Shown: positions 8,442 to 19,918, counted from the first letter of the stretch. The stretch is 64,000 nucleotides of DNA from Oscillospiraceae bacterium (GCA_021201735.1 JAJQEJ010000055.1:4650-68649); one strand, 5' to 3'. Notes: generated from the sequence alone by a model not told the origin. Translations and numbers: made by a program.

Positions 8442-11357
8442 ATGTATATTCTTAATCAACTTGCGCTTCCAGATAACTGTGCCGAACGGAACGTCACCCG
8501 ACGGATTCTGCCAAGAAGCATTCCAGGCGGATATCTGGTCTATGCGACCCCTGATTTGTCCACTGTTTTGTATGCAGAGGACACGCTTTCGGCGGCGTTT
8601 ACCGACATCAACAATGACACCAGCGGTATCACCGCGTTTACCGTGGTGGCGACCGGTGATGATGCTGATGTCGGCGAGACTGCGAACCTGACCACGAACA
8701 AGACCGTCACCCTTACATCGCCCGCCGGGGCAAATTCCATTTTGCGCAAGGGCGCGAACGACAGACATATCCTCTTAACCGCAGGGGAGCTTGTGCTCAC
8801 CAACATCACACTCGACGGCAATGGGTTTAGCGGCGGCTTATCCATTACTGGCGCTTCCCTCATCATAGAGGACGGCGCGGTGATTCGCAACAATGTCAGC
8901 ACCGGCACCGGCGTCGGTATCCTGGTTTCTCACGGCACCTTCCTGATGCGTGGCGGAGAAATTTACAACAATATCAACACCTCCGATTTTGGCGCAAGCG
9001 GCGGCGGGGTATATCTTGGCACTACGCTCACGGCGGGTGAATATTCCGGAAGCTACGGCTTTATGGAAGGCGGAAAAATCTATGGGAATCAAAACTACTG
9101 GGGCGGCGGCGTAGCCGTTGGGATTTTCAGCCACTTCACGATGTCCGGCGGCGAGATTTTTAACAACCTTGCGACCAATGCCGGCGGCGTAGATGTATAT
9201 GTCAGAGCGATCTTCACCATGAATGGCGGAAGTATTTACAACAATACCGCTGCCTCCAGTAGCGGCACAACCGGATCCGGCGGCGGCGTATTTGTGGGGC
9301 AAGGAACCCATGTGGCCGGTGAACCGACGGACTGGTGCAGATTCATCATGAACAGCGGCAGCGTGGAGGGCAACAGCTGCATTACCGGTGGCGGCGGCGT
9401 TGCGCTGATCTATAACGGGCAGATGGAGATGAACGGCGGAAGCATCTCCAATAACCGCACCAGCAGTGCCGGTGGCGGTGTGCTTCTTCGTATCGTAGAT
9501 CGGACGGACTTAACCACGCCGATGTACTTCAAAATGTCAGGTGGCACAGTGTCGGGCAATGAGGCCAGATTCGGCGGCGGCATCTGCCTGTATGATTATG
9601 ACGTGATATCCTTTGCCAAAGAAGTTATGCTTACGATAACCGGCGGGGTGATTACAGGGAACACGGCCACACCCCAATATGGCGGCGGGATTGTTGTGGT
9701 AAGGTATCCCACAAACCCTGACACGGTCACCTTTGAGATCGGCAGCCCAACAGAAAGCGAAACCGCCGCGCCGGTAATCAGTGGCAATCAAGCTGCCACT
9801 ACCGGCGGCGGTATCCAAATTTTAAATGTCACGCTTACCATGTATGCCGGTATGGTCAGTGGAAATGCAGCGGTAGACAACGGTGGCGGCATTGTTGTCT
9901 CCACAGGGAGTACACTCATCATGCCTGGAGGCTCCATTGAGGGAAATACTTCGGGTAGCAATGGCGGCGGCATATGGGTCTCCGCCAGCGGGACAGCGAA
10001 CCTCAGCGGTGCAACCACGATCATCAATAACACCGCCACAAACGAGGGCGGCGGAATCTATACGGCGGATTTTACAGACTATGCAAACCTGACCGCGAGC
10101 GACTATCAAAATATCACGACGGCAAACACGGTTGTGTTCGGCGGAAATTCCGCTTCGGCGGCTTATGAGCCGCCCGCCATCGCGTCCAGCTATACCAATA
10201 TCGGCTATGCATCCACCAGCATTGTGGGCAGCGGTGGCTTTCTGAACCCGATTAACAACTACGATATCAACTATGTCTTCCCGCCCAGTCTTCTTGTTTA
10301 CGCGGTATCTTACAATGCAAACGGCGGTGTCGGCAGCTATCCGACGGAATATTTTGTGGAGGGCACCGAATATACAGTGCTCTCGCCGGAGGAGACGGGC
10401 ATCAGCCGCCCGGGTTACACCTTCACCGGCTGGAATACCCAGCCCAACGGCACCGGAACCGCGTACCAGCCGGGGGATACCTTTGTGATTACTGAAGATG
10501 TCAACCTCTACGCCCAGTGGGAGGCGGTCGCAGGCACGGTCTCCGTGCTCTATGATTCCAACGGCGGTACCGGCAGCCATGCGGATGTAGGCCTTCCCAT
10601 CGGGACAGAATACACCATTCTCACACCGGAGGAGATAGGAATCAGCCGCCCGGGCTATACCTTCGTCGGCTGGAATACCCAGCCCAACGGAACCGGCACC
10701 GCGTACCAGCCGGGGGATACCGTTGTCTTGACCGAGAATCTGATCCTATACGCCCAGTGGGTCACCGTCCTGGGGCCCTACGATGTGCTCTACGAAGCCA
10801 ACGGCGGCACCGGCATCTTTGTGGATACCGGCATTCCCGGCGGCACGATATACACCATTCTCACACCGGAAGCGACAGTGATCAGCCGCCCCGGCTACGT
10901 CTTCACCGGCTGGAATACCCAACCCGACGGAAGCGGCATCACGTACCAGCCGGGGAATACGGTGACGATCAACGAGAATCTGACGCTCTACGCCCAGTGG
11001 ACTCCGATGATGGTAGCGTTCCATGTAATCTATAACGCCAACGGCGGCACCGGCGGATTTACGGATACCGTGCTCTACGGTACCCTATACGACGTCCTCT
11101 CCTCCTCGGAGGTGGGGATCACCCGCCCGGGCTACACCTTTACCGGCTGGAACACGCAGCCCGACGGCAGCGGCACCGCGTACCAGGTCGGCGATACGAT
11201 CCTCATCACCGGCGACGTGACACTCTATGCCCAGTGGGTGGCAAACGAAGCGCCGGTCCCTCCGGTATGCTGCATCCCGTGCTGCAACATCTGTTGTCCT
11301 CCATGCTGTATACCTTGTACCAACAAAAAGACAAACTGCCATACAAGAGTATGGTAA
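8442..11357 (+). CDS. Beta-helix / Flg_new-repeat protein, no signal peptide, Cys-rich C-terminal tail (paralog 1)
   Basis: 971 aa. The N-terminus MYILNQLALPDNCAERNVTRR has no hydrophobic segment. There are about 550 aa of GGG[IV]-type turns typical of right-handed parallel beta-helices, then 4 Listeria-Bacteroides (Flg_new) repeats (..NANGGTG..GYTFTGWNTQPDGSGTAY..LYAQW). The tail is VCCIPCCNICCPPCCIPCTNKKTNCHTRVW. Confidence 0.85.
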   Translation: MYILNQLALPDNCAERNVTRRILPRSIPGGYLVYATPDLSTVLYAEDTLSAAFTDINNDTSGITAFTVVATGDDADVGETANLTTNKTVTLTSPAGANSILRKGANDRHILLTAGELVLTNITLDGNGFSGGLSITGASLIIEDGAVIRNNVSTGTGVGILVSHGTFLMRGGEIYNNINTSDFGASGGGVYLGTTLTAGEYSGSYGFMEGGKIYGNQNYWGGGVAVGIFSHFTMSGGEIFNNLATNAGGVDVYVRAIFTMNGGSIYNNTAASSSGTTGSGGGVFVGQGTHVAGEPTDWCRFIMNSGSVEGNSCITGGGGVALIYNGQMEMNGGSISNNRTSSAGGGVLLRIVDRTDLTTPMYFKMSGGTVSGNEARFGGGICLYDYDVISFAKEVMLTITGGVITGNTATPQYGGGIVVVRYPTNPDTVTFEIGSPTESETAAPVISGNQAATTGGGIQILNVTLTMYAGMVSGNAAVDNGGGIVVSTGSTLIMPGGSIEGNTSGSNGGGIWVSASGTANLSGATTIINNTATNEGGGIYTADFTDYANLTASDYQNITTANTVVFGGNSASAAYEPPAIASSYTNIGYASTSIVGSGGFLNPINNYDINYVFPPSLLVYAVSYNANGGVGSYPTEYFVEGTEYTVLSPEETGISRPGYTFTGWNTQPNGTGTAYQPGDTFVITEDVNLYAQWEAVAGTVSVLYDSNGGTGSHADVGLPIGTEYTILTPEEIGISRPGYTFVGWNTQPNGTGTAYQPGDTVVLTENLILYAQWVTVLGPYDVLYEANGGTGIFVDTGIPGGTIYTILTPEATVISRPGYVFTGWNTQPDGSGITYQPGNTVTINENLTLYAQWTPMMVAFHVIYNANGGTGGFTDTVLYGTLYDVLSSSEVGITRPGYTFTGWNTQPDGSGTAYQVGDTILITGDVTLYAQWVANEAPVPPVCCIPCCNICCPPCCIPCTNKKTNCHTRVW
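10299..11237 (+). repeat. Four tandem ~78-aa Flg_new (Listeria-Bacteroides) coding repeats in paralog 1
   Basis: Each unit starts Y/F-x-V-x-Y-x-x-NGG and ends LYAQW. The units are very similar to each other at the DNA level. Confidence 0.8.
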
Positions 11358-11365
11358 TCTGACCG

Positions 11366-11403
11366 CAAGAGGGGCATGGTGTACAATCGCCGTGCCCCTC
11401 TTG
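11366..11403 (+). terminator. Hairpin after paralog 1
   Basis: A 14-bp stem, CAAGAGGGGCATGG / CCGTGCCCCTCTTG (one G-U pair), with a 10-nt loop. No U-tract follows. Confidence 0.5.
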
Positions 11404-19805: not shown

Positions 19806-19889
19806 AAACGTAGTTCCTTTCCCCTAAGTTTAGTGAATGCTACATGCTATCTTTTAATGATATCATAGCAATATAGTATTCTTTATTTA

Positions 19890-19918
19890 AGTATACCATA
19901 GTACACGTATGCTGTAAA
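19890..19918 (-). promoter_or_regulatory. Sigma-A type promoter of the SLH-anchored beta-helix gene
   Basis: Minus strand: TTTACA (19918-19913), 17 nt, then TATACT (19895-19890). Confidence 0.55.

Follow-up and report, generated by a model that had tools for sequence, protein, structure and literature searches.

How does one type of surface-protein module come to be fitted with different address elements, and to which surfaces of the cell are the resulting proteins sent? This question is raised by a 64,000-nucleotide (nt) stretch of DNA from an Oscillospiraceae bacterium (GCA_021201735.1, JAJQEJ010000055.1:4650-68649), hereafter the window, in which positions are counted from the first letter. 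Three large proteins encoded there share a predicted beta-helix that continues into Flg_new repeats. Two of them, P1 and P2, are tandem plus-strand paralogs that lack a signal peptide and carry a Cys-Pro tail at the C-terminus, and the third, P3, is encoded on the minus strand and has a Sec signal peptide and an SLH region. We consider it probable that P1 and P2 are mother-cell-expressed proteins of the spore envelope, with the outer surface (outer coat or exosporium) as their most likely site, that P3 is a vegetative, Sec-exported counterpart held on the wall by its SLH region, and that both forms use one family of right-handed beta-helices. Coordinates of the individual features are collected in Table 1.

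The helix of P3 was compared with that of P1 by pairwise alignment. The two proteins aligned collinearly over P1 residues 49-853 with 37% identity (396 bits, E = 7e-125), and the alignment contained the block pairs GTFLMRGGEI/GTFYMHGGEI, EPTDWCRFIMNSG/EPDDWCSFIMNGG, LTASDYQNITTA/ITASDYANIKTA, and PINNYDINYV/PINNFDINYV. Collinearity at this level of identity and significance, with all of the blocks present, indicates true homology and not a chance likeness of low-complexity GGG turns. Residues 1-623 of P1 were modeled with AlphaFold2 from an alignment of 21 sequences; the model was an all-beta solenoid of regular short strands (predicted local distance difference test score, pLDDT, 87.7; predicted template modeling score, pTM, 0.88) in which the N-terminal ~28 residues were disordered. 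Fold neighbors of the model in the PDB were all weak (E >= 0.01), and the better ones were nearly all right-handed beta-helices; the neighbors included alginate epimerases, lyases, tailspikes, pertactin, and rhombotarget A. A search of PDB sequences with the helix gave no match, the helices of P1, P2, and P3 had no Pfam match at E <= 0.01 (PF13229 Beta_helix and PF02415 Chlam_PMP included), and precomputed matches to PF13229 or PF02415 were present in only some relatives. A beta-helix is thus supported as the predicted fold. The role of "binding module" is unproven, the modeled fold being a generic one common to lyases, epimerases, tailspikes, and adhesins.

The address elements of the three proteins differ at both ends. 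A hydrophobic core is missing from the N-termini of P1 and P2, and stop codons lie in frame 5 codons (P1) and 11 codons (P2) upstream of the ATG, so that no hidden signal peptide is possible; the start of P1 at 8442 is preceded by the ribosome-binding site GGAG, 9 nt ahead of the ATG. Pfam detected Flg_new (PF09479) in four stretches of each protein (179.8 bits for P1 and 186 for P2; cut-off, 27), and neither protein had an SLH match. Both end in ...PVCCIPCCNICCPPCCIPCTNKKTNCHTRVW. P3 begins with MKEGKKGFRATRGIALCIAIAMLFTLGLHVSA/AD, judged by inspection to be a classical Sec signal, scores 70.6 bits for Flg_new against the same cut-off, and is the only one of the three with an SLH match (PF00395, 113.2 bits; cut-off, 20.8), two stretches of which pass individually, the region spanning ~185 residues. 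For the Flg_new repeats of these proteins, TIGR02543 (List_Bact_rpt) gave scores of 91.1 and 42 bits (cut-off, 20.95). The sigma-A-type promoter-like site of P3 lies downstream of a separately transcribed tRNA-Gln gene. The preliminary description, which was made from the DNA sequence, had reported these ORFs (open reading frames), the collinear helices with their four shared blocks, the Sec, SLH, and sigma-A address of P3, and the signal-less, Cys-tailed form of P1 and P2; all of this was confirmed.

P1 and P2 are 84% identical end to end. Their synonymous divergence (dS) of 0.42, with a ratio of nonsynonymous to synonymous divergence (dN/dS) of 0.20, which signifies purifying selection, implies that both genes are maintained. 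By region, dN/dS was 0.12 for the Flg_new cassette, 0.09 for the tail, 0.25 for the helix, and 0.44 for the mid-helix, making the cassette and tail the most constrained parts of the proteins and the middle of the helix the least constrained.

Upstream of P1, of P2, and of the neighboring collagen-like gene P4 is the motif GAAC-N17-CATA(GAA/TGA)TA. It fits the SigK consensus of Clostridioides difficile, which consists of a -35 element AC and a -10 element CATATAAT and belongs to an organism in which bclA1-3 and cot genes are SigK-dependent (PMC3789822). We applied one criterion uniformly, namely, AC-N16-17-CATAnnnT no more than 150 nt upstream of the gene. The motif was present at nine of ten Cys-tail genes (4/4 in the host genome and 5/6 on foreign contigs) and at none of 15 signal-bearing relatives (0/12 and 0/3, respectively), an association with a Fisher p of ~5e-6 as calculated by hand, in which two close gene pairs reduce the independence of the rows. 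The two unlinked Cys-tail paralogs of the host genome, on contigs C71 and C64, are preceded by AC-N17-CATATGAT and AC-N17-CATAAATT, respectively. The two strands of the genome together contain 182 copies of AC-N17-CATAnnnT, and the motif lies within 150 nt upstream of just 21 of 1,948 crude genes (1.1%). These 21 include genes for YmaF, SodA, a BclA_C protein, a further collagen-like protein, and a YtaF-like membrane protein, and they plausibly form a late mother-cell set. The sole sigma-A-type site at P1, TTGACA-16-TATATT at 8423-8450, was rejected as a promoter since it overlaps the start codon.

The host genome (2.35 Mb in 80 contigs, 97% complete, 55% GC) also encodes sporulation proteins. 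SpoIVA was found at 385 bits, SigK at 277 bits with NF004471 (cut-off, 252), SigE at 384 with its equivalog model (cut-off, 339), and a three-domain SipL-like protein was also present; within the window lies the gene for the spore transglutaminase, Tgl (PF20085, 298 bits). The preliminary description had labeled the Cys-tail proteins as putatively spore-bound. In silico, this label is supported by the SigK-type motifs, the sporulation-competent genome, and the collagen-like neighbor with the same motif, while the localization itself is a prediction from sequence.

P1, P2, and P3 belong to a larger family. At least 17 ORFs of the host genome contain a related helix, ~10 of them with a signal peptide and SLH, and several more are truncated by the end of a contig or by an assembly gap. 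Intact ORFs that are signal-less and carry a Cys tail number four (P1, P2, and the genes on C71 and C64). A fifth Cys-tail copy, on contig C12 (~120-1220, plus strand), is degraded, frameshifted, and shortened, with part of the N-cap, 208 aa of helix, and 120 aa of Flg_new (ending in ...IPCQCFCIPCCHPCCPCTRK) each left in a different reading frame. Eight Cys-tail relatives were found in metagenomes (P0008, P0009, P0014, P0017, P0027, P0028, P0129, and P0275), each without a signal peptide and with the Cys-rich tail directly after the final ...LYAQW of Flg_new. None of the 12 Cys-tail proteins (four from the host genome and eight from metagenomes) therefore has a signal peptide. A signal-peptide-like N-terminus is present in nearly every full-length relative whose C-terminus is SLH or hydrophobic-plus-basic, a few rows being truncated or ambiguous. 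When the final two Flg_new repeats and the tail were searched together in a representative library, most of the matches were giant multi-repeat proteins; among the ~150 matches listed, three carried Cys tags, and all three lacked a signal peptide. The Cys tail gave no match to NCBIfam sorting-signal or family models, the 43-aa tail searched alone in 121 family genomes gave just weak, uninterpretable low-complexity matches, and when termini rich in Cys were sought across the whole genome (55% GC), shadow ORFs overwhelmed the output. An (I/V)xLPxxS segment was considered as an N-terminal address motif and rejected, since signal-bearing relatives have the same cap after the signal peptide.

Phylogenies were constructed separately for the helix and for the Flg_new repeats. 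A maximum-likelihood tree of the helix (34 proteins, 607 columns) interleaved the address classes, and its starred branches force at least four changes of the Cys-tail label. A single Cys-tail clade was rejected by the approximately unbiased (AU) test (difference in log likelihood, lnL, of 172; p = 1e-53). The nearest helix relative of P1 and P2 was P0015, a signal-bearing, membrane-anchored metagenome protein with 45% identity, supported at 99% by the Shimodaira-Hasegawa-like approximate likelihood ratio test (SH-aLRT), and this group joined next with P0013 and P3. The remaining Cys-tail proteins occupied at least three further places on the tree. Pairs that cross the address classes with at least 99% SH-aLRT were P1/P2-P0015, P0010-P0011, and P0017-P0054. 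The repeats were distributed by address class: the best 16 matches of every P1 Flg_new repeat were repeats of Cys-tail proteins (60-70% identity), a count that takes in P0007, a truncated P1 copy from another sample. In a tree of 70 repeats, all 29 from Cys-tail proteins lay on one side of the deepest split, with the three repeats of P3 and all other SLH-protein repeats of the host genome opposite; this split had just 78% support, and one origin of the cassette would also agree with the tree. The clustering of the Cys-tail repeats indicates that the address cassette consists of Flg_new plus the Cys tail, and the exchange point would be the helix/Flg_new junction, around PINNYDINYV.

These sequence comparisons support one beta-helix lineage with differing address elements that were swapped more than once. 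The preliminary description had pictured a set of three proteins, all continuing into Flg_new, with domain shuffling as the origin of the arrangement. In fact, the family has at least 17 paralogs, including four intact and one degraded Cys-tail copies, and P0015 is nearer than P3 to the P1/P2 helix. All three proteins do continue into Flg_new, by Pfam and by a repeat hidden Markov model (HMM), but the repeats split by address class and so fall outside the shared part. Shuffling was upheld by the interleaved helix tree and the AU test, with the module boundary moved to the helix/Flg_new junction.

Table 1. Features of the P1-P4 region and unlinked Cys-tail paralogs (residue numbers refer to the protein, other numbers to the window)
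Feature	Position	Strand	Details
P1	8442-11357	+	971 aa; signal-less beta-helix/Flg_new protein with Cys-Pro tail
P1 SigK-type promoter motif	8366..8393	+	AC 8366-8367, 17-nt spacer, CATAGAATA 8385-8393; direct reading and pattern scan
P1 disordered N-terminus	residues 1-28 (8442-8525)	+	
P1 beta-helix	residues ~29-617 (8526-10292)	+	
P1 Flg_new repeats	residues 618-936 (10293-11249)	+	n = 4
P1 Cys tail	residues 937-971 (11250-11354)	+	
Inverted repeat 3' of P1	11365..11404	+	15-nt arms, 14/15 paired; direct reading
P2	11510-14428	+	972 aa; tandem paralog of P1
P2 SigK-type promoter motif	11434..11461	+	AC 11434-11435, 17-nt spacer, CATAGAATA 11453-11461
Inverted repeat 3' of P2	14435..14476	+	direct reading
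P4	14668..16137	+	collagen-like; 489 aa from ATG with AGGGGTGA ribosome-binding site
P4 SigK-type promoter motif	14600..14627	+	AC 14600-14601, 17-nt spacer, CATATGATA 14619-14627
P3	16389-19805	-	1138 aa
P3 signal peptide	residues 1-32 (19805-19710)	-	
P3 beta-helix	residues ~33-636 (19709-17898)	-	
P3 Flg_new repeats	residues 637-900 (17897-17106)	-	n = 3; repeat HMM
P3 SLH region	residues ~905-1090 (17093-16536)	-	
P3 sigma-A-type promoter-like site	19890..19918	-	TTTACA-17-TATACT plus upstream TG, ~85 nt ahead of ATG
Intrinsic terminator 3' of P3	16185..16220	-	strong; 16-bp stem plus T-run
Cys-tail paralog	contig C71		863 aa; ends ...KPCFICMPCRCVCINPCIQRRYC
Cys-tail paralog	contig C64		841 aa; ends ...VCLFCCNPCQCVPGCHCF

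The collagen-like protein P4 consists of a Cys-rich N-terminal tag, ~315 aa of Gly-X-Y (GXY) repeats (PF01391, 163.5 bits), and a 10-strand beta-sandwich knob. It was considered as a member of the BclA_C family and rejected on Pfam, PDB sequence, own-genome, and fold comparisons: the knob had no PDB sequence match at E <= 10 and no similarity to the BclA_C protein of the same genome, and a fold search with its AlphaFold2 model (pLDDT 76.5) returned neither BclA nor C1q. Since the knob is not BclA_C, P4 is "BclA-like" in architecture only. The three known homologs of P4 also have a Cys-rich N-terminus. The host genome has about a dozen collagen-like ORFs, most of which start with a Cys-(Pro)-rich segment ahead of the GXY stalk, e.g., MYLNCATPQCHPCCSNFICQIPT; ORFs with such starts lie on contigs C16, C23, C32, C50, C68, and C69 in addition to P4 in the window, and just some of them have the AC-N17-CATA motif at the tested spacing. 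On the minus strand of contig C13 (~22079-22700), a 200-aa protein combines the Cys-rich N-terminus ASGCCGCQVDCLPCGH with a SpaA prealbumin-like domain and one Flg_new repeat. An AC-N17-CATA motif lies upstream of its gene and a TGA inside the Flg_new match, and the gene may be broken or may continue. The metagenome Flg_new protein P0212 likewise has its Cys tag at the N-terminus. Beta-helix/Flg_new proteins carry the tag at the C-terminus, and collagen-like and SpaA/Flg_new proteins carry it at the N-terminus. A 282-aa ORF on the minus strand of contig C20 has a Cys-rich C-terminal half, belongs to no Pfam family, and is preceded by AC-N17-CATACTAT motifs at two places.

Several features of the window surround these genes. 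The inverted repeats 3' of P1 and P2 are likely terminator hairpins, that of P1 without a T-run. The tRNA-Gln(CTG) gene ahead of P3 (20049-20122, minus strand) stands alone between P3 and an arylsulfotransferase-like gene, with a perfect TTGACA-17-(TG)TATAAT promoter (20189-20161) and its own strong terminator (20040-20003). An 833-aa ORF at 5812-8313 (plus strand) was rejected as a shadow ORF, antisense to glnA and an amidophosphoribosyltransferase-like gene. Two overlapping plus-strand ORFs, 35485-37077 and 37007-39226, both contain Flg_new repeats and may be one frameshifted large surface protein. The tgl gene (43565-44392, minus strand) overlaps the stop codon of an upstream 262-aa ORF (44389-45177, minus strand) that has no Pfam family. 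SLH proteins are encoded on either side of this locus (41042-43498 and 45833-48169, both minus strand), one having Flg_new with C-terminal SLH and the other N-terminal SLH.

The following sequence of events would account for the two forms. Loss of the signal peptide would leave the protein in the mother-cell cytoplasm, the site at which the spore envelope is built. Transcription would take place late in sporulation from the AC-N17-CATAnnnTA (SigK-type) promoter, alongside that of the neighboring collagen-like fiber gene. The Flg_new repeats and the (C)C-x-P-C(C) tail would act as a conserved C-terminal stalk and anchor, the stalk holding the helix away from the spore surface and the Cys-Pro tail being cross-linked by disulfides into the cysteine-rich spore envelope. 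Helix heads would have been swapped repeatedly, at the helix/Flg_new junction, between this Cys cassette and Sec-dependent anchors (SLH, or a membrane or sortase-like tail). Expression timing, spore location, disulfide anchoring, and adhesive function or ligand binding are all read here from sequence features and are to be taken as predictions. Anchoring through cysteine is suggested by analogy with the cysteine connectors of endospore appendages (ENA) and of L-BclA, and with the disulfide-stabilized, cysteine-rich layers of Clostridia and Bacilli spores, for which CdeC and CdeM (PMC6101409) are a precedent.

P1 and P2 could also be associated with the spore and not be displayed on it, either buried in the inner coat or interspace or set free when the mother cell lyses, to serve as an aggregation factor or extrasporal matrix. 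Such proteins would agree equally well with the promoter motif and the lack of a signal peptide, the layer is not fixed by any result, and extrasporal matrix fibers are known in Bacillus thuringiensis (PMC12357932). Burial or release nevertheless appears fairly unlikely, as the module is adhesin-like and common to wall-displayed paralogs, is set on a long Flg_new stalk, and is encoded next to a collagen-like fiber gene with the same promoter motif; collagen-like fibers form the outermost nap in known systems (PMC3789822). If the proteins were instead vegetative, they would reach the surface by a non-Sec route or stay in the cytoplasm, and the Cys tail would be a metallothionein-like metal-binding peptide or a new sorting signal. 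Metal binding is possible for CCxxCC runs, the tail is matched by no known sorting-signal model of NCBIfam, and SufE and cysteine desulfurase genes adjoin one foreign locus. We assign this explanation little probability in view of the 9/10 versus 0/15 motif association, the lack of a sigma-A-type site serving P1, and the absence of conserved secretion genes near the loci, both in the window and on foreign contigs. Prophage or tailocin tail-spike genes likewise encode signal-less beta-helices, and tailspikes are among the weak structural neighbors of the model. Flg_new repeats and Cys tails are foreign to tail-spikes, however, none of nine foreign loci is flanked by phage genes, and the neighbors in the window are housekeeping genes (purF-like, glnA, dapF, tRNA-Gln, a LysR regulator, and ftsH), a context that effectively excludes a tail-spike; we consider such an origin extremely improbable.

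A different objection concerns the evolutionary part of the argument. The Cys-tail class could be one old lineage without any shuffling, the interleaving in the helix tree being an artifact of fast repeat-rich evolution, long branches, or gene conversion among the paralogs of one genome. The helix tree does have long end branches (median 1.03) and eight rows of deviant composition, the Flg_new repeat tree allows one origin of the cassette, and P3 lies 2 kb from P1 and P2, a distance that permits conversion. Set against this are the rejection of a Cys clade by 172 lnL units and the three strongly supported cross-class pairings. Conversion within one genome cannot explain these pairs, as they come from different samples, and P1 and P3, at just 37% identity, are too diverged for recent conversion. 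We judge an unshuffled lineage to be improbable.

Other observations weigh against our interpretation of P1 and P2 as mother-cell-expressed proteins of the spore surface. The promoter motif is short and degenerate, and one foreign Cys-tail gene, L019, is one base short of the motif criterion. The -10 element is common to SigE and SigK, and timing within the mother-cell program is therefore not fixed. Upstream of the window's tgl operon, no clear copy of the SigK-type motif was seen. P4 does not have BclA_C as its knob, with no match to PF18573. The beta-helix could be an enzyme, lyase and epimerase folds being the nearest structural neighbors of the model. Disulfide formation in the mother cell of a strict anaerobe is assumed by analogy. 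No docking partner was found, DUF3992/Ena (PF13157) being unmatched here and also in 14 of 14 control genomes, and the source is an uncultured, metagenome-assembled genome.

A broader proposal, which we hold tentatively and with less confidence than the spore-envelope assignment of P1 and P2, is that Oscillospiraceae and other Clostridia of the gut may use the (C)C-x-P-C(C) repeat peptide as a portable address tag for the spore surface, one that can be placed at the N- or the C-terminus. Where the signal is lost and a SigK promoter gained, the tag could move any wall-adhesin head onto the spore by cassette exchange, and the gut would then encounter related binding modules on the vegetative cells and the spores of one organism. 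Many commensal Clostridia of the gut are transmitted as spores, and the decoration of Oscillospiraceae spores is almost unstudied; a search of the available literature returned no paper tying Flg_new proteins to spores. If the proposal is true, three traits together (absence of a signal peptide, a Cys-Pro tag at one terminus, and the promoter AC-N17-CATAnnnTA) would mark spore-surface proteins in uncultured genomes, the vegetative wall and the spore would share adhesin heads and exchange them, and the tag with its Flg_new stalk would offer a candidate means of displaying proteins on the spore surface.

Among known systems, P3 and at least nine paralogs with signal peptide, beta-helix, Flg_new, and SLH resemble the SLH/Flg_new wall proteins of Firmicutes that NCBI names "InlB B-repeat-containing protein," the closest public names being [quoted passage not shown] P1 and P2 differ from these in lacking the signal peptide and SLH and in having a Cys-Pro tail instead. 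P4 is like the BclA-type nap proteins in its terminal attachment segment, long GXY stalk, C-terminal beta knob, and SigK-type motif, as at C. difficile bclA1-3, and unlike them in having no BclA_C/C1q domain and in carrying a Cys-rich N-terminal tag in place of the LIGPTLPPIPP-type exosporium leader. The cysteine-rich exosporium and coat proteins CdeC/CdeM, CsxA/CsxC, and CotY/ExsY of Clostridia and Bacilli have SigK-type late expression and a disulfide-stabilized assembly in the outer spore layers (PMC6101409 and PMC7333573), and cysteine-rich lattices of the spore envelope undergo cooperative disulfide cross-linking (bioRxiv 10.64898/2026.09.03.749163). The Cys-tail proteins share their high local Cys density; those proteins, however, are lattice scaffolds that are Cys-rich throughout, whereas Cys is confined here to a 25-35-residue terminal tag of a large modular adhesin-like protein. 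In the ENA system of the Bacillus cereus group, the N-terminal connectors of Ena1/Ena3 and the tip fibrillum L-BclA, which is collagen-like and has an N-terminal CC motif, are signal-less spore-surface proteins, made in the mother cell and covalently attached via short terminal Cys motifs (PMC11362473). The tag described here is much longer, a Pro-rich (CCxx)n at the C-terminus of a 970-aa beta-helix/Flg_new protein, and the host is a Clostridia gut anaerobe with no Ena-core match (the controls were unmatched too). Both systems have in common a short terminal Cys motif on signal-less proteins, represented here by the tails of P1, P2, and the C71 and C64 paralogs and by the N-terminal tags of the collagen-like proteins, and, as predicted from their promoters, expression during sporulation.

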